Assembly: GCF_055900595.2 (NCBI RefSeq)
Contig: NZ_CM148325.1
DNA: 64,000 bases
Reading direction: 5' to 3' (one strand)
The position numbers and the translations under genes were made by a program. The notes under the pieces are model-generated. The model worked only from the letters and a program-made list of their open reading frames with translations. It did no database searches and had not been told where the DNA came from. Shown piece by piece: positions 28,903 through 55,777 of the stretch. Position 1 is the first letter of the stretch, and each line of letters begins with the position of its first letter.

Positions 28903-29169
28903 TGTATCTTATATTGTGATATCGGTGCTGCTGCTGTTATTTTTTGTTGTATTTGTGACGAATGGTTAAGAATAAAACATGAGTTGGTGATTATCAGGAC
29001 AGGTTGCTTGTATATGAAGATAACAAAGGCGGCATTTATTTTTGCGCTGTCAGTGTGGAGTGTTGCTGTGATATGTCTTTTATTATTTGTACTGGTTGTT
29101 CTGGGATAGCCATAGTGAAATAAAAAGCTGTCTGAATTAAATTATTTTGAACACATATTTTAATTCTGC

Positions 29170-30480
29170 ACTAAATTCAGAATGACCCTGTAAATAATTC
29201 TGTGTAACTGCCGCCGTATTAAAGGTGCTCGCTAAGGCGGTCACCGAACTCGATAATAAAACGGCTCATTGCCAGCCGCCAGTTCTGGATTGGCATACTC
29301 CATTTTTTGACGCCGACTGTATCGCCAGATAAATCACTTTTCGCACCGAGTCGTCCGTTGGGAACACCTTGCGCTTCTTTATCGCCTGCCGAATGACACT
29401 GTTCAGCGATTCGATGGCATTCGTCGTGTAGATGGCCTTGCGGATATCCGGTGGGTAACCGAAGAAGGTGTTGAGATTTTCCCAGTGTGTGCGCCAGCTC
29501 TTGCTGATTTGCGGGTATTTTTCATCCCAGACGCCTGCAAACTTATCCAACGCCATCAACGCCGTTTCCTCTGTCGGGGCCTGATATACCGCTTTCAGCC
29601 CGCTGGTGACGGCTTTGTAATCCTTCCACGACACGAATTTCAGGCTGTTGCGCACCATATGGATGATGCAGAGCTGAATATGCGTCTGCGGGTACACGCT
29701 ATTTATCGCTTCCGGGAAGCCTTTCAGGCCGTCCACGAAGGCGATAAGGATATCGTTCAGGCCGCGATTTTTCAGTTCCGTCAGTACATTCAGCCAGAAC
29801 TTTGCACCTTCATTTTCGGCCAGCCACATATCCAGCAGCTCTTTCTGACCGTCGGTATTGATGCCCAGCGCGAGGAACACCGCTTTGTTAATGACACTCC
29901 CGCTGTGACGAACCTTAACCACAATACAGTCAAGATAAACAATGGGATACAGTGCATCCAACGGTCGGTTTTGCCATTCAGAGACCTGTTCTTTAACCGC
30001 ATCGGTCACTTTGGATATCAGCGTGGGCGAGACATCGGCGTCGTACATTTCTTTGAAGGCTGAGGTAATTTCGCGGGTAGTCATCCCTCTGGCATACAGC
30101 GCCAGGATCTGGTTGTCCATGCCGGTAATGCGGGTCTGATTTTTCTTCACCAGTTGTGGTTCGAAGGTATTTTCACGGTCACGCGGCGTGTTAAGTTCGA
30201 TCTCGCCATCATCGCACAATACCGTTTTTGACGAGTAGCCATTACGGGTATTAGAGCCTGATTTAGGAGCATTTTTCTCATGACCTAGATGGTCAGTCAG
30301 TTCTGCATTGAGCGCCGTTTCGACGGTAAGCTTTGTCAACATGCGTGAAAACTGGTTGAGGTCGGCTTCGGTTTTAAGGCCTTTGGCCAGTTCAGCCGCA
30401 AGGACTTTAAGTTTCTTTTCGTCCATCGTTTGCCTGTCTCCGTTGTTGGAGTGAACATATCAAAAACAGGCAATTACACA
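29170..30480 (-). mobile_element. IS256-family element (approximate ends)
   Basis: End motif GAACATATCAAAAACAGGCAATTACA near 30455-30480, shared with remnants at 51865-51900 and 62391-62420. Confidence 0.6.
29266..30426 (-). CDS. IS256-family transposase, C-terminal end frameshifted
   Basis: 386 aa mutator-type transposase; the expected ending ...KKWSMPIQNWRLAMSRFIIEF is encoded in another frame near 29240-29300. Confidence 0.8.
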   Translation of the reverse strand: MDEKKLKVLAAELAKGLKTEADLNQFSRMLTKLTVETALNAELTDHLGHEKNAPKSGSNTRNGYSSKTVLCDDGEIELNTPRDRENTFEPQLVKKNQTRITGMDNQILALYARGMTTREITSAFKEMYDADVSPTLISKVTDAVKEQVSEWQNRPLDALYPIVYLDCIVVKVRHSGSVINKAVFLALGINTDGQKELLDMWLAENEGAKFWLNVLTELKNRGLNDILIAFVDGLKGFPEAINSVYPQTHIQLCIIHMVRNSLKFVSWKDYKAVTSGLKAVYQAPTEETALMALDKFAGVWDEKYPQISKSWRTHWENLNTFFGYPPDIRKAIYTTNAIESLNSVIRQAIKKRKVFPTDDSVRKVIYLAIQSASKNGVCQSRTGGWQ

Positions 30481-30539
30481 ATTTTAATTACAGTCTCTTC
30501 AGAATGGGTAATCAGTGACCGTCCTGACGGTCACTTTAA

Positions 30540-31230
30540 AGAAAATGCATATTACACAGAATGGTAAACAGGCTCAACATAGAGCTTGAAGGTAGTTGTT
30601 GCCTTGTAATAAAATGTGTGATTCATAGACATCGTTTCAATTTTCTCAGTTCAAGTTCAGGCTTGTAATTCTGTTCCTGTATATGCTCTTCATTGGGCTG
30701 ATAGTTTGCATGAACGGCATCGGAGTATGGTGTTTTCTCAGCAAGTTCAAAGTAGCGTTCCATCGGAGTTTTACCGTTGTGAGCGCTATGAGGACGTTCC
30801 CTGTTATAGTAATGCTACCATTCTGCTAGCAATCCCTTCAGGTCATCAGCAGAAAGATCTACGGTAGCGTAAAACTCAGCTTTGTCTGTCTTTTGGGAAC
30901 GTCCAACCTTTATTACATCAGGCGACAACTACCTTGAAAAACGCCGTTACTCACCGATCCCCTTCACGGTAATACGCACTATTGCCAGTGAGATTGAATG
31001 AAGTCGTTTTAACTCGCTTTGAATACGTCTTGCACCCAGATTTCGCTGAGAACGTAACTTCCAGAATCAGAGCGACTTCGCAAGTGCTGGTTTTCGTTGA
31101 TGGTGAACGCTTGGAGCGACGGCTGTAGCTTTCCAGACCAGCGATGCCCTGAGCCAGATATCTGCGCCACCATTTACACAATGTGGGCCGAGAAGTGCCA
31201 CAGTGACGGCATACAAATGTCAACGACGGA
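30540..31230 (-). mobile_element. Degenerate IS remnant (IS3/IS481-like HTH and integrase-core fragments)
   Basis: Fragmentary translations only (GTSRPTLCKWWRRYLAQGIAGL... and ...HSAHNGKTPMERYF). Confidence 0.4.
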
Positions 31231-31266
31231 TGAAAAGTGGCTCTTACGCAACCTGGATGGAGATTT

Positions 31267-32284
31267 TCATGCCAGTGGACTCATGACCCTCTGCCTGAGT
31301 AGTTCAAATCCGGCTCGACCATACATCTGGCCTTTCAGCATTTTTAGTCGATTTACATGACTTTCGACAACCCCCATTATTCCAGCGACTGCTGATTGCC
31401 TCACATATAGCCGCAGCATCAGCTGCCATCCTTGCAGCCACGCGCCGAAGTTACCACTTTCTCGTTGCTCTTTTAACCACTCCCTCCATGGGGCCAGAAG
31501 TCCTCGCTCTGGAGGCCGGGTTGACATTTCAGGGAATGTTCCTGAACACACCCAGAGACTGACTGTCACACGTGATAAGCCTGTAATACGGGATATTTCC
31601 CCTGAACCCACATCCCTTGTTATGTAGTGCCATAACCTCTGTCCAACGCTGATGCCGTTTTTGGCGGGTTTGCTGTTTAAGGCGTTCCGGACGACGGAGC
31701 GATGCTACAGGCACAGACAGTACTGGCTTAGGTGATTTCTTTGGTGACAACCCACTGGCAACAAGACGTATCAGAGGCATCTGTCTGTACATCATTCGTT
31801 CAGGCGCATCGCCAATATTTTTTAGCAGGTGCCATCGATCAGCTATCTGTCTGGCCTGAGGTGCACCTTCACGTGCTGCTGTCGCATAGACTCCGCCACG
31901 GTCACGTGAGACAACCTGTATTTCCGGATATTTTCTGAACCAGGTCGCCAGCGTACTCTGATCGCAACCGGGAAGCAGGACGAGGGGACGGTGAGTATCA
32001 AGATTGACGATTAACGTGCCGTAATGGTGGCCCCGATGCCACGCCCACTCATCAATACCGACATGAGGCGCGCCCGACTGTTTCGTCTCCGGGGTATTAA
32101 TAACCCTGCGAAGAAGAGTATCAGCACTGCAACGTAGCCCCACTGCCGTTGCTGCCTGTTTCCCGGCCTCACCTCCGGCTATTAATCCCGGTTGACGTTG
32201 TAAATTTTGTAACGCCTGTGAATACTGCTGATGTGAACTGTGAAGGGAGGCTGAGACTCGGCAAAATTTTTCGTTAACAGGCAA
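31267..32284 (-). pseudogene. ISL3-family transposase fragments
   Basis: Two overlapping ORFs with ISL3-like motifs (DEWAWHRGHHYGTLIVNLDTH). Confidence 0.55.
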
Positions 32285-32710
32285 GGGTTATGGCAGCACC
32301 AGAGTAAGATGCGTCTGGGCTGAGCAGGGTAAGTGCTGTATCTGGAGGCGATGGCATCTATGAACTGAGTAGCTGTGCTTAAGGTATTCAACACATAGTG
32401 CTGTTTTGCATTTTCCGGGGAGATGGAGGGTTATATACCGTCAGTGCTAATAACTTCTTGACCGTATTGCCATCAGCAAAGTAACCGTAGAAATCTCTTA
32501 AGTGAGTGTATTAAGTTACCCATAACTTAAAACGGCTTCACTGGTAAGCCTCATACATTTTCTTTCACTCAAGTTGTGGAAGCCCTCTTTCGTCGAACCG
32601 TTCGTTATAAATGCAAAAGATGTATGCTGACCCTCTCAAAGCCGAAATCATACAGAGTTTATGGAAAAGTGGTGAACCAGTCGCGTCGAAAGTAGATTGA
32701 GCTCATATCA

Positions 32711-43413: not shown

Positions 43414-44648
43414 TCAAAACGCCATATTCAGTTTCCCGTAGTGGAACATCACGCCCAGCTTAAAGCGTTCCCGATTGCGGTATCCCCTGGCTTTTATCCT
43501 CAGCAGCCTGAGCTTACTGTTAAGCGCCTCCGCGTTTCCGTTTGAGACACGGTGTCGCATGGCATTCAGGATCCCATACAGCCTTTTTCCTATCGTTTTC
43601 GTGGCGTTTTTCATCATAGTAATGTCACTGTTGGCCGCCAGAGCCAGCAATCTCTCCCACTCATTACGTCTTTCCTCACTTCATGGCCTGTTCCAGATAT
43701 TCTTTGCCAGCTCTTTCAGCGCCCAGCACAGGCTTGTCAGCTTCATCTGTGCACGCAGCCATATCAGCTTTTCCTGCCTGGATTCGGTCATCCATTTATC
43801 GTTGTACTGCCACAGGAAGCGGGTCCCCTTTGCCTGACGCCGACTTTCAACAGGGAGGTGTGGATGTTCATCCTGACGGATTTTATCAACCACTTCACCA
43901 AGTTGCTTTGCTACATGGAAGCGGTCGAAGGCGATTTTCTCAACCGCACAGGGTAAGTGGATACGCGCTGCTCTTATACAGCCTGCATTCATGTCCATTG
44001 AGAGCGTTTTGATAGCCAGCAACTGCCCGTCAGTAAGCGTGCGAAGATAGCCGGCGAGGCTCTCTGTGCCACGATCGTCCGTTAAGGCCAGTGCACGACC
44101 ATCGCGATCGGAGATCACAGTTATATAACAATGTCCTTTTTTAAAGGCGACCTCATCCACATTCATATGACGGGCGGATAATGGCTTTTTTATCCGGGCA
44201 AGACCTCGCTTAACTGCCCGGGTCATAATGCCGTCAACCGCATTCCAGCTGAGCTTAAGTTGTTTCCTTACAGCATCAACAGTGCTGATTTTCAGCCATG
44301 AGAGAACGAGTCGAACAGCAGCGTATACCGCCTTCCGGGGCCAGCCCAGGGAACTAGCAACGTCTGGCAGCCATGCTCCGGGCACATAATGCGGGGCACA
44401 TCGGCTTCGACAATAGTGGTGAACTGGCAGATATCAAGATGACGCCATTTACGATGACGGTGATCGTGAACAGAACAGGATTTACCGCAGGTCGGACAGG
44501 CTAACCGGGCATTTTTAGCGATTCCAACTGTGACGGTAACAGAACCGGCGTTTTCATCGAGAGAAAGATATTTAACCTGCCATGGAGCGGTCAGGTTGAT
44601 AATATGAGCGTAGAGGGACCTTTCGTCCATGGCGGTGACCTTTGGCAA
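43414..44648 (-). pseudogene. ISL3-family transposase broken into three frames
   Basis: ORFs 44292-44648, 43681-44385 and 43414-43650 together resemble one ISL3 transposase. Confidence 0.7.
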
Positions 44649-44929
44649 TTAAAACACCATCATCATGCCTTCAGCCACCATAACAAGGGAAAACCCTGAT
44701 ATACGGCCTTAAAAAGATATTCCGTCTCCGGAACGGACTGCTCACCACTGAATAACATTATGCCTGTTTTATGTATCTTTGACTGAAATTTATCGCATAT
44801 CCTCATTTCATTGCCCGTATGAAAAGGTAAGCGAAAACCTACTGCCGTAGTAGCCATTGAGTAGTATTGGTAACATAGGTGCCAACATTTCAACTGATCT
44901 GCGCTAAGATCTTGGGTATTCTATGAAAA

Positions 44930-45700
44930 ATGTGGTAGTGCTTCCAATCAGTAGAACATGTTCTTTTCAATGACGGAACCGATGACTTTTTCGTTGATTT
45001 TCACGGAACGCGAGAAGCAGATTGTTTTACGTGCCAGCCGCTTGATGCGGGTGCGGAGGGGCAGGTTGTTAAGTTCAATAGGTTGCGTGAATATTTTACC
45101 GGTCAGGTATTTCTCCTTCGTCACTTCTCTGACGTTGCAGCCCCTGTCATTGCTGGTCACTATGCCGATATAGAACGAAGTCAACAGGGCTAACAGTTCC
45201 CGACAGGTCTCATCATTCCGTGGCCCGAAAGAATAAGCCAACACACCGCAGTTTTAGTGTTGTAAGCAGACCAGTGTTGTTGCGCCTTGCTGCCAACGAA
45301 ATTTAACTGCTCATCAAGTTTCAAAGATAAGGGCAACATCAGCGTGAACGACTGGCGTAGATGTTATCCGCCGGGGCGAAAACATTTTTAATGTCCGTAT
45401 GACGGTATTGATGCCGATTTTCAGTGTTCATGGGTATCACGGGCACCTGCGCCGTTATGTGCCATTTCAACGATCTGCTCCTTAACGCCGGGTTTCCTGA
45501 CTTCACCAAGAGTAAGTGAGCTGGAAAACATGTTTTACATGAGCGACAACGGAAACGCTCATCTCGGGAACGTGTTCTTAACGGTTAGACTGGCCCCCCT
45601 GAATCACCTGCAGTTGAAGGACAGTAACAGGTTAAGTGATAACAGATGTCTGGAAATATAGAGGTAAATCCAAGGAAGTGCCACTTTTCATCCGTTGTTG
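44930..45700 (-). mobile_element. Degenerate IS1-family remnant
   Basis: InsB-like C-terminal ORF 44948-45244 and IS1-like end at about 44930; no intact reading frames. Confidence 0.5.
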
Positions 45701-45938
45701 ACAATACAGCAAAACTTGATGCTATTCGTACGCCCACAATGGAATGTGGATTCAAACTGAATATTCCGTTTGTTGATATGAGTGATTTGGGCAACGGTGG
45801 CAACAAATAACTTTATACAGGAGCTGACGGTGTTTTCCTGATCATGCCGCCCATATTTTCTTCGGAGGTCGGGGACTTTCAATACCTTCCCCCGACACTC
45901 TATGACTTCACAAGATTGTCTCCATGACTGCTATGTGC

Positions 45939-46817
45939 CTACAGATGTTGCTCTCTGGTTGTTGTACTAGTCGGGAGATCCTGTGGATCGACATTTTCCT
46001 TCGCGTGAGCATTGATGCTGGAAGCGGTAAACGTCAGGATGAATACAACCGTGAATAAGATAACAATCGTTGGTGCTGGTGCGCTGTCTATAAAAAAGGA
46101 GAGCCATACACCAGTCATTGAGACCATTACCGATATACCGAGCGCCAGCAGGAGCGCAATATGAAAGCGTTGCGTCAGGAGTACCGCAATGGCGCCAGGC
46201 GCAATGAGCAGAGAAATGGAGAGAATGATACCTACCGCTTTCAGCGTCGCCACAATGGTCAGAGAGACCATGCACAGCAGCCCATAATGCAGCCATCTCG
46301 TATGCAAACCGCTTACCTGCGCCTGTTGATAATCAAAGCTGAACAGCAAAAAATCCCGCCATTTTACGCTAATAACAAGTGTAACCAGCCCGGCAATAAT
46401 CACCGTCTGGATTATATCGCCGATGGTTACCCCGAGCATGTCGCCGAAAAGAATATGGTCAAGATGTACGTCGGGTTTGACTGCAATATACAAGATCAGA
46501 CCTGCGGCAAACATGCCAGAAAAAACAATCCCCATCACTGAATCTTGCTTGATTCGGCTGTTGTCTTTCAGGTATCCCGTCGCCACCGCGCAGAATACTC
46601 CGGCGACGAATGCTCCTCCCGCCAGAGGAAAACCCAGTATCCACGCAAGCACGATACCAGGAAAAACCGCATGACTCATCGCGTCTCCCATCAGTGCCCA
46701 ACCTTTCAGGACCAGAAAGACCGACAGCAGCGCACAGGGTATGGAAACTACCAGTGAAATCAGCAGTGCGTGACTCATAAAGGTGAACTGCAGTGGCTCC
46801 AGTAATAATGCCATCAT
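45939..46817 (-). CDS. sitD: Mn/Fe ABC transporter permease SitD
   Basis: 292-aa permease, last gene of a four-gene operon. Confidence 0.85.
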   Translation of the reverse strand: MMALLLEPLQFTFMSHALLISLVVSIPCALLSVFLVLKGWALMGDAMSHAVFPGIVLAWILGFPLAGGAFVAGVFCAVATGYLKDNSRIKQDSVMGIVFSGMFAAGLILYIAVKPDVHLDHILFGDMLGVTIGDIIQTVIIAGLVTLVISVKWRDFLLFSFDYQQAQVSGLHTRWLHYGLLCMVSLTIVATLKAVGIILSISLLIAPGAIAVLLTQRFHIALLLALGISVMVSMTGVWLSFFIDSAPAPTIVILFTVVFILTFTASSINAHAKENVDPQDLPTSTTTREQHL

Positions 46818-47671
46818 GAGCGATCCTCCAGCACCTTATGCGCACGCTGACGATTTGCCAAAAGCCCATGGGTGGGTGCAAAGACAAATGCTAAAAGAAA
46901 CAGCAGTGTCTGCGCCACCACGATGATTCCACCTGTCGCTCCGTCCAGAAAGTAACTGACCCACGCGCCGAGGAAACTGGTTACACTGCCAATAGTTACA
47001 GCAATCACGAGCAGGCGGGGAAAACGATCGGTTAACAACCATGCTGTTGCGCCAGGGGTCACTACCAGACAGATCACCAGAAAAGCCCCAACCGTTTGCA
47101 ATGCTGCAACGGTCGATACCGCCAGCAGTGTGAAGAAGAGGATTTTTAATCTTCCTGGATATAATCCAATAGCACGGGCGTGATTCTCGTCGAAAAAGGT
47201 CACCATAAGATCTTTCCATTTGAAAAAGAGCACTATGACTGAGACAATGCCAATGATAGTGAGTTGCAGGATATCCGCCGGAGCGATTGCCAGAATATTG
47301 CCCAGGACGATGGTCTGAATATTTACGGATGTCGGGTTTAATGACACCATAAACAGCCCCAGGCCAAAAAAGGACGAGAAGATCAGGCCGATGATGGCAT
47401 CTTCTTTTAAGCGAGTGCGTTGGTTAAGAAACAGCATGCTGCCCGCAGCCAGTCCACCGGAAAAGAAGGCCCCCAGAGAAAACGGAAGCCCCAGCATATA
47501 TGCCCCCGCAACACCCGGGACGATAGAGTGCGACAGCGCATCGCCAATCAGCGACCAGCCTTTTAGCATCAGATAGCATGACAGGAAAGCGCAGAGACCG
47601 CCGACCATCGCCGCGACCCACATCGCATTGAGCATATATTCATAGCTGAAGGGTTCCAGTAGCACGTTCAT
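46814..47671 (-). CDS. sitC: Mn/Fe ABC transporter permease SitC
   Basis: 285-aa permease; 4-bp overlaps with both neighbours. Confidence 0.85.
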
Positions 47672-48495
47672 CTTTCTTCCCTCTGCACCGCTGATGGTCG
47701 ATAAGCCACAAAGGGGCGTTCATCGTCAGTAATAATGCTTTCTTCCGAGCCTTTAAGTGTGACATGGCGTAGTACGCCGCTAAAAGCCAGCTCCAGGTTC
47801 TCGGCTGTAAAAGTGGTGTCTGTCGGCCCGCTTGCCAGGACGGTGCCTTTGACCATGACCGTATAATCGCAAAATGTCGTGACGGATCCGAGATTGTGCG
47901 TTGAGACAAGCATCGTTTTGCCTTCCGCGCGTAACTCCCTCAACAGGCTGATGATTTTGGCTTCGGTTTTCACATCAACGCCGGTAAAAGGTTCATCCAG
48001 CAGGATCACATCACCCTGCTGTGCAATCGCTCTCGCCAGAAAGACGCGTTTCTTTTGTCCACCGGAAAGCTCGCCGATTTGTCGATGGCGAAAATCTACC
48101 ATATCGACACGTTCCAGCGCATCGGTGACAACCTGACGATCCCTCTTATTGGCTATACGCAACATACCCATATGCCCATAGCGGCCCATCATCACCACAT
48201 CTTCCACCAGTACAGGAAAGGACCAGTCCACTTCTTCTGACTGCGGGACGTAGGCAATCAGGTTTTTCTGCAGAGCCTGCCGCGTGGGAATACCCAGAAC
48301 AGATATCTTTCCGGTAGTCAGACGCACGAATCCCATAATCGCTTTAAATAACGTCGATTTTCCGGAACCGTTTACCCCAACCAGAGCGGCAATAGATCCG
48401 CCTGGTACTGTGAAGGATGCATCGCGCAGTGCTGTGTGCCCGTTACGCCAGGTGACAGTAACGCCATTAACGACAATACCCGCAGATTGCATCAT
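47668..48495 (-). CDS. sitB: Mn/Fe ABC transporter ATP-binding protein SitB
   Basis: Walker [10 protein letters not shown] and LSGGQKKR signature. Confidence 0.9.
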
Positions 48496-49409
48496 TACTT
48501 CTCCCTTTTCCCGGCTTTAATTCCCTGCACCAGCGTACTGGTAGTAACCTTCAGAAGGTCGATATACGTAGGTACCGGGCCGTTTTCTGTGCTCAGGGAA
48601 TCGACATAGAGCACACCGCCGTAGTGTGCGCCGGTTTCACGCGCAACCTGACGCGCTGGTTTATCGGAAACCGTACTCTCACTAAATACCGCTGGGATAT
48701 TATTTTTCTTCACTATATCAACCACTTTACGTACCTGCTGGGGTGTTCCTTGTTGATCGGCATTTATCGGCCACAGATAAAGCTCTTTTAGCCCCAAATC
48801 GCGTGCGAGATAAGAAAAAGCCCCTTCACTGGTGACCATCCATCTTTTATTCTCAGGGAGTTCAGCAATCTGCTTACGCAGGGGGGCAAGGGTTTGGGTA
48901 ATCTTGGCTTTATAAGTATCGGCATTACGTTGGTATGTTTTTGCATTTGCCGGATCGTATTTTATCAACGCATCACGAATATTATCGACGTAAATCAAAG
49001 CATTATCTGGCGACATCCAGGCATGAGGGTTAGGTTTTCCCTCGTAGGGGCCTTCGGTGATCCCTACTGGCGTCACACCCGAAGAGACAATCACTTCTGG
49101 AACACCATTGAGATGCTGGTAAAAGCGCTGGAACCACAATTCCAGATTCATTCCATTGGCGAGAATCAGTTGTGCCCCCTGCGCACGTTTAATATCGCCA
49201 GGGGTAGGCTGATACTCATGAATTTCCGCACCGGGCTTGGTTATGGATGAGACTTCTGCAACATCTCCAGCCACGTTTTTGGCCATATCTGCGATGATGG
49301 TAAATGTTGTAATGACCTTGAATTTTTCAGTTGCACTCGCCTGAAATGCGATCGAGCAGGTGAGGGCGAGGAACCCCAAGAGCATGGTTAATTTTTTTAT
49401 TGAGTGCAT
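48495..49409 (-). CDS. sitA: Mn/Fe ABC transporter periplasmic binding protein SitA
   Basis: 304 aa with signal peptide; TroA/PsaA-type metal-binding family. Confidence 0.9.
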
Positions 49410-49643
49410 AATTCAGTACCTATAGTGAGCAAAATTAGAACAAACATAGCAACGGCTATGTTTTATAGCATAATCTATACAAATGCAAATGGTTATCATT
49501 AATGTATTTGTTTGTAAGTGATGAGATGCTCTTCCTCTCCTTCACGACAGCCTTCAATTACGCCATGATGGATAAACTGTAACCATAAAAGGAGAAATGT
49601 ACTGAACACATCCTGCCCTGTTAAGAGAGGTGCACTGTGATGG

Positions 49644-50790
49644 ATGAAGGGTAAAATTGTCTGCTGTGGAGCCTCTCAGATTTCCGGCATCATAGTGCCC
49701 AATACGGGATGCAAAAGCGCCCTCAGACTGGCGACTCCACAAATGAAATATACACCGGTTGGCGTTGATATCGCAAAGTATCTGATTCAGGTTCACTTCA
49801 TCAATGAGTACACGGGCGAAGTGGTGGACAAGCAGCTACGTAGCAAGGATTTTCTGACGTTCTTCAGCAACCGGGAACCCTGTCTGATAGGTATGGAGGC
49901 TTGTGGAGGCTCCCAACATTGGGCGAGGGAACTGGAAAAAACTGGGACACAAAGTTCGGCTGTTGCAAGCTCGCTTCGTTAAAGCATTCGTCATGGGCAA
50001 CAAAAATGATGTGATGGATGCGCGTGCTATCTGGATGGCGGTACAGCAGCCCAGTAAAGATATCGCTGTTAAAACGGAAGAGAAGCAGTCAGTTCTGGTC
50101 CTGCACCGTTCGCGCAGACAACTGGTGAAGTTCAGAACCTCGCATATTAATACCCTTGGCACGCTCCTCGAGTTTGGTGAAATCCTCCACAAAGATCGGA
50201 CAGCGATGGACAGAAAGCTACCGACAGCCCTAGAGCGAATGAAGACGAACCTGCCGCCGTATCTCATCACTGTGCTTGAATACCAGTACAACAGACTGAG
50301 TGAGCTGGGCATGCAGATAGATGGCCTTGATAAACAGATTAACAGCGTGGCACGGCAGAGCGAAAACTGTAAGCGCCTAATGGAAATCCCCGGTGTGGGG
50401 CCGTTAATCGCTACGGCGGTGGTCGCCACCATGGGCGAGGCCTCAGCATTTAAATCCGGACGTGAGTTTGACGCTTATGTCTGTCTGGTGCCGAAGCAGA
50501 CGGGGTCCGCTGGGAAGGTTCGCATGCTGGGGATAAGCAAACGTGGGGATACCTACCACCGGACATTATTTATCCATGGGGCAAGGGCGGCAGCATTGCT
50601 GACCAAAGAACCCGGCCCATGGATCACGGAGCTGAAAAAACGGCAGCCGACAGGTGTAATGCCGATCAGTTTAGGAGCAGTTGACCGATCCAGGGTCTGT
50701 TTAAGAATCCTGAAACGCTCACTCGTTTCCGGATTTTTGTGCACAGAAAACCCCCAGCTAGGCTGGGGGCCGGAAAGCTTTCAGCTTTGA
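49644..50790 (+). pseudogene. IS110-family transposase split into two frames
   Basis: ORFs 49644-49982 and 49903-50790 together resemble an IS110/IS1111-type transposase. Confidence 0.65.
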
Positions 50791-50879
50791 GCCAGTTATT
50801 AAAACCCCTTTTGATTTGTTAAAACACCTTGCGGTCTGGCAACTGCAAGTGTCAAACAAGAAATCAAAAGGGGGTCCCA

Positions 50880-51119
50880 ATGGGGAACGAAAAGAGCTTA
50901 GCGCATACCCGATGGAACTGTAAATATCACATAGTTTTTGCGCCAAAATACCGAAGAAAAGTGTTCTACAGAGAGAAGCGTAAAGCAACAGGCAGTATTT
51001 TGAGAAAGCTGTGTGAGTGGAAAAGTGTACGGATTCTTGAAGCTGAGTGCTGTGCAGATCATATCCATATGCTTGTGGAGATCCCGCCCAAAATGAGCGT
51101 ATCCGGCTTTATGGGATAG
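50880..51119 (+). pseudogene. IS200 TnpA (Y1 transposase) truncated at its 3' end by the IS256-like insertion
   Basis: MGNEKSLAHTRWNCKYHIVFAPKYRRKVFY... matches IS200 TnpA; the frame ends at the junction with IS256-derived sequence near 51120. Confidence 0.8.
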
Positions 51120-51850
51120 ACGGCATTAATCGCTTCCGGGAAGCCTTTCAGGCCGTCCACGAAGGCGATAAGGATATCGTTCAGGCCGCGATTTTTCAGT
51201 TCCGTCAGTACATTCAGCCAGAACTTTGCACCTTCATTTTCGGCCAGCCACATATCCAGCAGCTCTTTCTGACCGTCGGTATTGATGCCCAGCGCGAGGA
51301 ACACCGCTTTGTTAATGACACTCCCGCTGTGACGAACCTTAACCACAATACAGTCAAGATAAACAATGGGATACAGTGCATCCAACGGTCGGTTTTGCCA
51401 TTCAGAGACCTGTTCTTTAACCGCATCGGTCACTTTGGATATCAGCGTGGGCGAGACATCGGCGTCGTACATTTCTTTGAAGGCTGAGGTAATTTCGCGG
51501 GTAGTCATCCCTCTGGCATACAGCGCCAGGATCTGGTTGTCCATGCCGGTAATGCGGGTCTGATTTTTCTTCACCAGTTGTGGTTCGAAGGAACCATCAC
51601 GATCAGGTGGAGTACGTAATTCCATCGGCCCGTCGGTAGTGGTGACGGTTTTCGTGGAATAGCCATTACGGAAGTTGGTTCCCGATTTGGTCTGATTTTT
51701 TTCATGTCCCAGATGGTGAGTCAGTTCAGCGTTGAGAGCTGCCTCAACACTTATTTTCTTGAGCAGGCGATCGAACTGACTGAGATCTTCAGGGGTTTTG
51801 AGATTTTTGGCCAGTTCGTTAGCCAGAGCCTGCAATTGTGTGTCGTCCAT
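51059..51850 (-). pseudogene. IS256-family transposase, truncated copy
   Basis: 263 aa; 3' portion missing; 5' portion differs from the copy at 30426 while the rest is identical. Confidence 0.75.
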
Positions 51851-52139
51851 AATTTAGCTTTCATTTGATGTTGAATTGAACATATCAAAATCAGGCAATT
51901 ACATAAATCTATGTACAGGCTCAATGCCGGCGCTGGTATTGTAGAAATCAATCCTGCCCCTGATGTCGGAGATACTCTCGTTAACCTTCCTGATTGTATC
52001 CTCTGCTCAGTCAATGGGTTGCCAATGGGGGCACCCTTTCCTGACTGATTCGTCATTTCATTCTTATTGTATGTTACTGGCATTACACCAGTGCTGGCAT
52101 ACTTTCCTGCGTGTCTGCACCGGTTTGACAAAATTCAAC

Positions 52140-52500
52140 AGGGATAAAATAGTGCAGGAAACTGAAGCATTACTTGCAGAGCCGGGAGACATCCGGCGTT
52201 TTATTCAACAGGCAGTGGATCACTGGCCGCATTTTCTGATTGTCCACTTCACACACAATTCGACAGAAGGAAACATCAACGGACAACAGATTCATGCATT
52301 CTGAACTTCCTTTTATGAACGTATTACTGAACGTAATCACACTGACAGTCCATCCTCGCCGGTGGTATTACGCTGGTTGCGTGAACAACATGAAGGAACA
52401 ACAATACCTGTTGCTGCTCAGCCATGTGGTGGCATGCAGCGGCACTTTAAGCAGCACAGGGCACTTTGAACTGCTCCGGGAATCCTGGAGACTAAACTCC
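52140..52500 (+). pseudogene. Degraded copy of the YfjJ/Gp2-like gene seen at 23172-23720
   Basis: Broken frames translate to ...IRRFIQQAVDHWP...EGNINGQQIHAF, matching the gene at 23172. Confidence 0.6.
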
Positions 52501-54489: not shown

Positions 54490-55250
<761 letters not shown>

Positions 55251-55777
55251 CTAACGATGAGAAACCCAACAATCCCATCGGGTGTGACGGTGGAGTGATC
55301 CTACCCACGTAATGTGGACACGGCCCTAAGCGAGATTATGGTTTTCAAATTGTTCCGGGCTGAGACCGCCACAGGCACTGTGACGACGCCAGCGATTGTA
55401 ATCACACTCGATATAATTAAACACCGTTGCCCGCATTATTTCCCGGCTGCTAAAGCGTTCCCCGTGGATACATTCCACCTTCAGCGAATGAAAGAAGCTT
55501 TCCACACAGGCATTGTCATAACAGTAGCCTTTCGCACTCATACTGCCACGCAGGTTGTGTCGCTTCAGCAGCGCCTGATAATCCCCTGAACAGTATTGAC
55601 CACCACGGTCCGTATGAGCAATGACGCTTTCCGGGCGTCTTCTCCGCCACAACGCCATTTGCCGTGCATCACAGGCCAGTTGTGCTGTCATTCGCGGTGA
55701 CATCGACCAGCCAATGACGGCGCGTGACCACAGGTCGATGACTACTGTGAGATACAACCAGCCCTCATCGGTACGCA

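Follow-up and report, generated by a model that had tools for sequence, protein, structure and literature searches.

The pgm locus of Yersinia pestis is flanked by IS100 and exemplifies the deletion of a block of iron-uptake or virulence genes by recombination between directly repeated IS copies on either side. Lawrence, Ochman and Hartl (Genetics 131:9, 1992) reportedly described mosaic IS1 and IS3 elements generated by intragenic recombination. Gene conversion among non-functional IS copies is credited to Cordaux 2009 (Mol Biol Evol 26:1679) in PMC3205602, and gene conversion has also been noted between variants of IS26 (PMC7885326). For ISEc39, as NCBI PGAP and ISfinder call an IS256-family element of E. 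coli, only passing mentions were found in the literature, with no description of the mosaic reported here. A ColV-plasmid paper contains nothing on the chromosomal sit/aerobactin island described here.

The window, a stretch of 64,000 nucleotides from contig NZ_CM148325.1, contains two IS256-family open reading frames, at 29266-30426 (386 aa) and 51059-51850 (263 aa), both on the minus strand. Both encode Transposase_mut (PF00872), the single DDE transposase of the Mutator type that characterizes the IS256 family. The positions and the family assignment agree exactly with an earlier note on this DNA. The elements that carry these frames are called copy A and copy B below. It is very probable that A and B exchanged sequence by non-reciprocal gene conversion, and that the resulting 463-bp repeat then permits deletion of the block between them.

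Copy A is a complete ISEc39-type element of 1314 bp (29184-30497, minus strand) and a pseudogene with two imported patches of the type of copy B (B-type). Its ends are imperfect terminal inverted repeats of roughly 29 nt, GAGACTGTAATTAAAATTGTGTAATTGCC and GACCCTGTAAATAATTCTGTGTAACTGCC. An 8-bp target-site duplication, ATTCTGAA on the minus strand, was read directly from the sequence on the 5' side (30498-30505) and is identical on the 3' side (29176-29183). The match between these duplications indicates that the two flanks of copy A belong together. The length in the range of ~1.3-1.5 kb, the imperfect inverted repeats and a duplication of 8-9 bp are all features of the IS256 family. The PF00872 match in copy A covers profile positions 12-373 of 379 (E = 3e-114, 382 bits). 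Outside the exchanged patches, its backbone is 98-100% identical to four ISEc39 copies. Over the whole element the identity to ISEc39 is ~96-97%, with 51 differences in 1314 bp from the ISEc39 copy of 23AR1217, but inside the two patches it falls to 72-85%. Copy A appears to be an ISEc39 backbone with a chimeric interior. Alignment to the four ISEc39 copies located a frameshift at 29303-29308 (minus strand), where a run of six A replaces the seven A of intact ISEc39. This is the C-terminal frameshift that had been claimed for one of the copies; adding back one A restores an ORF of 402 aa. The 1-nt deletion deprives copy A of the intact frame of an active IS, and PGAP labels it "IS256 family transposase, frameshifted".

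Copy B (51114-51922, minus strand) comprises the 5' 809 bp of a B-type element, with an imported ISEc39 patch in its middle. It retains only its 5' end, at 51922, and lacks the pair of ends and the target-site duplication of a complete IS256-family element. The PF00872 match covers profile positions 17-246 (E = 5e-74, 250 bits) and is hence truncated. The homology to B-type references ends at about 51114, near the junction with IS200, and the 3' part is lost. The other partner of this junction is a truncated IS200 (50829-51116, plus strand; Pfam and PGAP) that preserves the 5' part of tnpA. Its ORF, at 50829-51119 on the plus strand, covers only positions 2-69 of 121 of the Y1_Tnp profile, and PGAP labels it "IS200/IS605 family transposase, incomplete", missing C-terminus. 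The two remnants are fused tail to tail (3'-to-3') at 51113-51116, so that the description of the second copy as truncated and abutting a truncated IS200 holds. The PGAP label of copy B is "IS256 family transposase, incomplete, missing C-terminus". With this truncation copy B has no intact frame of an active IS, and it is a fragment of an IS256-family member, not a complete element.

In blastn, A 29690-30497 pairs with B 51114-51922. Within this pairing is a mismatch-free block of 463 bp, at 29705-30167 in A and 51129-51591 in B (both on the minus strand), with a constant offset of 21,424. The 5' 330 bp show only about 65% identity with indels, so that uniform divergence along the length of the two copies is clearly absent. 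The earlier note had described proteins that diverge through roughly their first 90 residues and are identical from FEPQLVKKNQ onward. In BLASTP, 213 of 246 residues are identical; residues 88-242 (FEPQLVKKNQ...EAIN) show 100% identity, and 32 of the 33 differences are in the first 87 residues.

The canonical cores of the two parental lineages are only 80% identical, indicating that a perfect match of 463 bp is not due to chance; the probability of 463 consecutive matches at that identity is about 0.8^463, or roughly 1e-45. It is extremely improbable that no exchange took place and that the identity is due to repeats collapsed in the assembly, to chance or to purifying selection acting on the catalytic core of the transposase. 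The identical segment is indeed the most conserved catalytic part, with 80% DNA identity between the parents against 67-70% elsewhere. However, every synonymous site is identical over 463 bp in which the parents differ at 92 positions, both copies are pseudogenes, and the same structure is present in more than 50 independent complete assemblies. Copy A is observed in 65 records and copy B in 51, from independent complete assemblies of many hosts and countries, and this recurrence indicates that neither is an assembly artefact. Assembly artefact and selective convergence were ruled out on the population evidence and the synonymous-site identity.

The identical block is itself a mosaic of three segments and not of one origin, a point that goes beyond the earlier note. 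About 110 bp of B-type sequence is followed by about 239 bp of ISEc39-type and about 114 bp of B-type sequence, and this pattern is stable against four independent references for each parent. In copy A (all segments on the minus strand), patch 1 at 30058-30167 contains 27 B-type informative sites and one lone ISEc39-type site, at 30059; at 28 positions it differs from all four ISEc39 copies, but from the B-type references at only 0-2. The middle, at 29819-30057, contains 42 ISEc39-type sites and one lone B-type site, at 29968. Patch 3, at 29705-29818, contains 12 B-type sites at 29743-29818. The return to ISEc39 lies somewhere within 29705-29742, a 38-bp run alike in both parents. The corresponding ISEc39-type patch inside copy B is at 51243-51481 on the minus strand, as judged against four B-type references and ISEc39. 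In windows of 50 columns, the middle of both copies is 98-99% identical to ISEc39 and 62-88% identical to the four B-type references.

With E for ISEc39-type and T for B-type sites, the order of informative sites in A is E105, T26, E1, T1, E14, T1, E28, T12, E78. In B, it is T129, the same core as in A, and T16. These parental alleles are clustered in 9 runs (266 informative sites in A, 190 in B; permutation p at most 1e-5 for each). The core has four breakpoints, or five if the single-site switches are counted; those at 30059 and 29968 may have arisen by point mutation and not as repair patches. Three of the four breakpoint intervals coincide with long runs of parental identity. The run at 30057-30041 measures 17 bp and that at 29832-29819 measures 14 bp; the one at 29742-29705, of 38 bp, is the longest in the element. 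Breakpoint 1, at 30158-30167, has only about 10 bp of parental identity.

The two parental lineages are about 73% identical overall. The B-type is an unnamed IS256-family element related to IS1414 and distinct in lineage from ISEc39; its copies are common as pseudogenes, both chromosomal and on IncF plasmids of E. coli. None of the B-type copies examined has an intact transposase, and that of EC11p is multiply frameshifted. One canonical core is common to the four ISEc39 copies, each of which occupies a different locus or replicon, and the four B-type copies agree among themselves. Copy A resembles ISEc39 in its ends, its length (about 1.3 kb), its single Mutator-type gene of 402 aa and its 8-bp target duplication, with 98-100% identity outside the patches. 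It departs from ISEc39 by two tracts of B-type sequence, one of about 110 bp and one of about 80-114 bp, which change 12 residues, and by a 1-nt frameshift. Outside the middle patch, copy B is 95-100% identical to the copies of JML285, GB089p, RHB07p and EC11p. Over its 5' 440 bp and its final stretch of about 130 bp, it shows 95-100% identity to the copies in JML285, pCFSAN004181P, pRHB07-C12_2 and the EC11 plasmid, whereas its identity to IS1414 itself is only 72-92%. Unlike the B-type, copy B has a replacement of 239 bp by ISEc39 and is without the 3' 500 bp. That recombination or gene conversion had occurred between two distinct IS256-family elements was the central claim of the earlier note, and the ISEc39 and B-type parents and the mosaic of their alleles bear it out.

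The occurrence of the mosaic was surveyed in 5,426 complete E. coli genomes and, for plasmids, in PLSDB. The mosaic core is found at at least 99% identity in just 70 of the genome records. There is no match to the core at 95-99%; canonical ISEc39 shows 90.5% and the B-type 87-89%. The number of records with at least 99% identity matches the number of A, B and hybrid loci, and from this match, with individual loci sampled, the mosaic core appears to be confined to those loci. The canonical core as a query matched 160 records at at least 99%, although the non-core part of the query, roughly 1040 bp, also contributes to this count. Three alleles, at 29904, 29831 and 29738, are common to A and B and absent from both parents. 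Such private alleles indicate that the last exchange involved A and B themselves, and they are compatible with either order or direction of conversion. A separate mosaic IS256-family element with the same B/E/B core could instead have converted A and B independently, which is improbable. Such a donor would place the same three-part core in both copies without any particular order of events between A and B, and several other IS256-family copies are present in the same genomes (3-8 places per record). However, the restriction to 70 records, the gap at 95-99%, the lack of such a core on PLSDB plasmids (best match to B 92%) and the need for three events instead of two all argue against it.

States preceding the exchange were also searched for. 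A synthetic query of the ancestral A locus, which combines the flanks in the window with a canonical ISEc39 core, found no such locus among the complete E. coli matches listed; all 60 listed are full-length and mosaic-core, at 96.8-97.1%, the best of them at 97.1%. In the complete E. coli genomes, no B locus has a middle of B-type sequence alone; all 51 B loci show at least 99% identity. Neither unconverted nor mosaic B was found on PLSDB plasmids, where the best match, at 92%, represents ordinary B-type copies. No intermediate state of conversion was observed in SMS-3-5 and AHS8C65RI, which have divergent variants of the island and a core identical to that in the window. The Danish poultry (729) strains have an A copy with an additional patch of 7 bp and 4 substitutions. 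Its allele, TG.T..C, equals the JML285 and IS1414 allele at the corresponding columns, as read across two separate alignments, and the patch appears to be a further short exchange.

Spaced 21.4 kb apart in direct orientation, A and B flank sitABCD and iucABCD-iutA in an E. coli pathogenicity island. The segment between them (30498-51113) contains, according to the annotation of the identical region in NZ_CP033635.1, remnants of IS3 and ISL3, an MFS gene, iucABCD-iutA, remnants of ISL3 and IS1, sitABCD, and remnants of IS110 and IS200. The product expected from deletion between the repeats (B 5' + core + A 3') is observed at 99.9% identity in NZ_CP063492.1 and NZ_CP074701.1. In this hybrid IS, each of the 115 informative sites on the 5' side is B-type and each one on the 3' side is A-type, and the changeover lies within the repeat. 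These genomes lack 21,424 bp, one period of the repeat, which consists of the segment and parts of A and B. The sit-iuc block is absent, and sodC now adjoins the sigma-like/YadA genes. The two genomes share one extra SNP (window position 51883) and may represent a single deletion event, not two.

The sit and iuc genes are typical cargo of ColV plasmids, and some genomes do have one hybrid IS while lacking the sit-iuc block. Both points are in line with the opposite reading: a circular or plasmid sit-iuc segment with one IS256 copy entered a chromosomal IS256 by reciprocal crossover, and the hybrid of EF5-18-41 and 702/18 represents the empty site in its ancestral state. This is very improbable. 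A perfect 8-bp duplication, ATTCTGAA, borders copy A on both sides, and foreign flanks would match by chance about once in 65,000, whereas the hybrid has the 5' flank of B and the 3' flank of A with no duplication. Besides, pure parents that undergo a single crossover cannot yield two products that both have the B/E/B core. A tandem duplication, or an excised circle captured elsewhere, would contain the reciprocal joint (A 5' + core + B 3' + IS200), but this joint was not found anywhere searched; the top two matches to this query are unrelated neighbours of ISEc39 and IS200C. Integration by crossover was set aside on the argument of the target duplication.

Returning to gene conversion between A and B, the shared core of B-type, ISEc39-type and B-type sequence implies that each copy is recombinant and requires no fewer than two non-reciprocal exchanges. 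The matched 8-bp duplication of A, which leaves the flanks of this recipient unchanged, implies that its ends were never separated and that the exchange was non-reciprocal. Host homologous recombination would have acted on the central catalytic region, the most conserved part with 80% parental identity. In one order, B would first receive about 239 bp of ISEc39 sequence, giving perfect identity with A, and a longer tract, of 463 bp, would then pass from B to A, in which the ISEc39 segment, now returned, is bordered at either end by B-type sequence. In the reverse order, patchy conversion from B to A would be followed by conversion of the middle from A to B. Either way, the outcome is a perfect direct repeat of 463 bp, a substrate for an ordinary RecA-type crossover that would delete the 21.4-kb iron-uptake block and leave one hybrid IS. 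The sequences themselves show the mosaic and its parental lineages, the unbroken duplication of A, the confinement of the mosaic to this locus and the product of the deletion. The enzymology would be RecA-dependent recombination with tracts shaped by mismatch repair. The number, order and direction of the events are inferred, because the complete E. coli genomes searched contain no "before" state. E. coli mismatch repair normally strongly suppresses recombination between sequences 20% diverged, and the first event must therefore have been rare.

More tentatively, dead IS256-family copies in E. coli that have diverged by 20-30% might nonetheless routinely swap very short patches, of 7 to about 240 bp. 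The perfectly identical stretches so created would then permit larger rearrangements, among them the loss of virulence modules, although this generalization is rather doubtful. The three-part core, the switches at 30059 and 29968 and the Danish 7-bp patch are consistent with routine short exchange, while its frequency and generality are not established. If true, IS pseudogenes would be natural reporters of homeologous recombination and of mismatch-repair tract lengths, and would also seed instability of pathogenicity islands.

The A/B mosaic explains the inability of PGAP to classify copy A as ISEc39, and also why IS typing of the island by partial matches can mislead. The repeat explains how lineages of avian and human extraintestinal E. 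coli can lose chromosomal aerobactin and sit. Mosaic IS and IS-mediated deletion are textbook phenomena, and A/B is a new and well-resolved instance with nothing conceptually new: the parents, the four breakpoints, the non-reciprocity and the downstream loss of sitABCD and aerobactin are all legible from the sequence alone. As in the IS1 and IS3 cases reported by Lawrence et al., there are nested recombination tracts between diverged relatives of the same IS family in enteric bacteria. Unlike in those cases, both partners are dead and located in one island, and the donor, recipient, breakpoints and consequence can be read. The non-reciprocal homogenization of IS copies unable to transpose is common to the IS26 case and to that of Cordaux as cited in PMC3205602. 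There, the partners are near-identical copies of one IS, whereas here they are 73% identical and the tracts are short and patchy. As at the pgm locus of Y. pestis, direct IS repeats bracket siderophore and metal-uptake genes, and a crossover removes the block and leaves one IS. Unlike at pgm, the repeats are not the same IS, and the only usable homology is the 463-bp segment derived from the earlier conversions.

The two ORFs at 29266-30426 and 51059-51850, pointed out in an earlier note, both encode Mutator-type (IS256-family) transposases. Copy A spans 29184-30497 (1314 bp) and copy B 51114-51922, and both are on the minus strand. Their proteins are ~63% identical before residue 88 and identical from 88 to 242, as the note had described for a divergent start and an identical later part. 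At the DNA level, a core of 463 bp is shared without a mismatch (29705-30167 in A and 51129-51591 in B), and the preceding ~330 bp show ~65% identity with indels.

Copy A is bounded by imperfect terminal inverted repeats and flanked by a perfect 8-bp target duplication, ATTCTGAA. Over the 5' 330 bp of A, identity to copies designated ISEc39 by PGAP, such as those from CFT073 and Nissle 1917, is 99%. The frameshift noticed earlier in one copy is in A, where the A-run at 29303-29308 is one A short; the restored frame encodes a 402-aa protein. The 5' part of B belongs to another lineage, left by PGAP as "IS256 family" and here called B-type. Its closest copies (95-100%) are from strain JML285, pCFSAN004181P, pRHB07-C12_2 and an EC11 plasmid, and IS1414 is a more distant relative (72-92%). 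The identity between canonical ISEc39 and B-type sequences is 73% overall and highest in the core (80%), against 67% for the 5' third and 70% for the 3' part.

The 5' end of B (51821-51925) corresponds to a ~105-bp remnant, 94-95% identical, that most E. coli chromosomes carry, among them K-12 MG1655 (near 2.038 Mb of NZ_CP010442.1); it often bears the annotation "hypothetical protein". A third IS256-family fragment (62374-62591, plus strand), which shares 74% identity with the first 223 nt of A, lies directly downstream of an IbrB/ParB-like gene (61714-62358). The B-type element of the EC11 plasmid likewise adjoins an ibrB/ibrA-like pair.

For comparison with A, four ISEc39 copies were taken from as many different loci or replicons; two of the four are intact. 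Against all four, the differences of A cluster tightly at 30157-30058 (28 sites) and 29818-29738 (13 sites), where A is identical or nearly identical to B-type references; elsewhere only scattered single differences were seen. Copy B is B-type throughout except 51243-51481 (30057-29819 in A), which is 98-99% identical to ISEc39 and just 62-88% to B-type in 50-column windows. At informative sites, those that distinguish the consensus sequences of the two parents, A reads E105/T26/E1/T1/E14/T1/E28/T12/E78 (E, ISEc39-type; T, B-type) and B reads T129, a core identical to that of A, and T16. So few runs appeared in none of 100,000 shufflings of the sites. Three of the four breakpoint intervals fall inside runs of 17, 14 and 38 bp shared by both parents, the last being the longest parental identity run anywhere in the element. 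The recombination or gene conversion between distinct IS256-family elements proposed in the note is borne out.

Alleles at 29904, 29831 and 29738 are common to A and B and found in neither parent, linking A and B themselves to the last exchange. At 30059 and 29968, where only one site switches type, either a short repair patch or an ordinary mutation may be the cause. In Danish poultry isolates (NZ_CP160121.1), A has an extra 7-bp patch of four substitutions at 29953-29947, and its allele, TG.T..C, is that of JML285 and IS1414 copies at the corresponding alignment columns. The patch looks as if a very short tract had been converted by another member of the family, suggesting that such short exchanges continue.

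Because A retains a matched target duplication, its interior was replaced without separation of the ends, by gene conversion or, equivalently, a double crossover, and not by a single reciprocal exchange. Both copies depart from their parental types, so one simple tract is insufficient and at least two events would be required. In one economical order, ~239 bp of ISEc39 sequence would have entered B, and 463 bp from B would then have entered A, with the newly formed perfect identity as its seed. Patchy conversion from B to A, followed by conversion of the middle from A to B, fits equally well. The presumed enzymology is strand exchange of the RecA type, the short tracts between 20%-diverged sequences being shaped by mismatch repair.

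Among 5,426 complete genomes, the core is found at >=99% in only 70 records, with no match between 95 and 99%; canonical ISEc39 is 90.5% and B-type 87-89% identical to it. A synthetic unconverted A locus, used as a query against complete E. coli genomes, did not recover an ancestral state: all 60 matches listed are full-length and have a mosaic core, with 96.8-97.1% identity to the query. Each of the 51 full-length B loci reaches >=99%. PLSDB plasmids have ordinary B-type copies only (best match, 92%), and no separately transposing mosaic element is evident in the complete genomes or PLSDB. Divergent variants of the island, SMS-3-5 and AHS8C65RI, share the core of the window. This distribution indicates that the exchanges predate the spread of the island. 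The same mosaic structure across many genomes excludes an assembly artefact.

The DNA is E. coli chromosome, and both segments compared, 29000-30600 and 50700-52300, match NZ_CP033635.1 and dozens of other complete genomes of poultry and human origin at 100% identity. The annotation of NZ_CP033635.1 depicts a pathogenicity-island segment rich in IS debris, with genes for a YadA-like adhesin and a sigma-factor-like HTH protein, copy A, IS3 and ISL3 remnants, an MFS gene, iucABCD-iutA, ISL3 and IS1 remnants, sitDCBA, IS110 and IS200 remnants, copy B and sodC, in this order in the window direction. Being on the same strand, A and B are direct repeats around the aerobactin and Sit iron/manganese uptake genes. 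The iucD gene (39789-41122, plus strand) has an ORF stop at 41066 (425 aa), and PGAP calls the same gene frameshifted near its 3' end in NZ_CP033635.1 and SMS-3-5; aerobactin synthesis from the island may be impaired, or the shorter IucD may serve. Beyond sodC, at ~54500-57300, lie several IS3-family fragments and an ltrA pseudogene (group II intron reverse transcriptase/maturase) with an internal stop, as annotated in NZ_CP033635.1.

The other copy was said to be truncated and to abut a truncated IS200; indeed, B ends near 51114 in a 3'-to-3' fusion with an IS200 itself lacking its 3' half. This joint implies that a single deletion removed the 3' parts of both. Next to B (49743-51116) lies the truncated IS200, followed by an IS110-family gene, frameshifted and also truncated, immediately upstream of sitA.

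The conversions made the sole long perfect homology between A and B. The product predicted for a crossover there (B flank, B 5' part, core, A 3' part and A flank) was found full-length at 99.9% in NZ_CP063492.1 (chicken, Laos) and NZ_CP074701.1 (human, Germany). In both genomes, the order is sodC, this hybrid IS, and then the sigma-like and YadA-like genes, and 21,424 bp with sit and iuc are missing. The hybrid is B-type at all 5' informative sites and A-type at all 3' ones, placing the crossover inside the 463 bp. The hybrid could instead represent an empty integration site; this was rejected, as it has no matching target duplication and A has one, which makes the two-copy state ancestral and the hybrid a deletion product. 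The reciprocal joint, a mark of duplication or of a captured circle, was searched for and not found. Another island variant (NZ_CP125885.1) has copy A with the same mosaic core; the annotation of the 12 kb upstream of A lacks the aerobactin genes and shows an ISL3 copy and unrelated metabolic genes, while sit and copy B would be located farther away, an arrangement indicating that other IS in the island also drive rearrangements.

The earlier note is extended by the three-part core, the need for at least two conversions, and the loss of the sit/aerobactin block in nature via the resulting repeat. IS-flanked deletion of iron-uptake loci is classical, as in the pgm locus of Y. pestis. In enterics, nested intragenic recombination between diverged IS relatives was reportedly described for IS1 and IS3 (Lawrence, Ochman and Hartl, 1992). 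Cordaux (2009), cited in PMC3205602, described gene conversion between IS copies that are no longer functional, and such conversion has been noted for IS26 (PMC7885326). The mosaic was not described in the ISEc39 literature searched, and the exchange between A and B adds a well-resolved new case to a known type of event.
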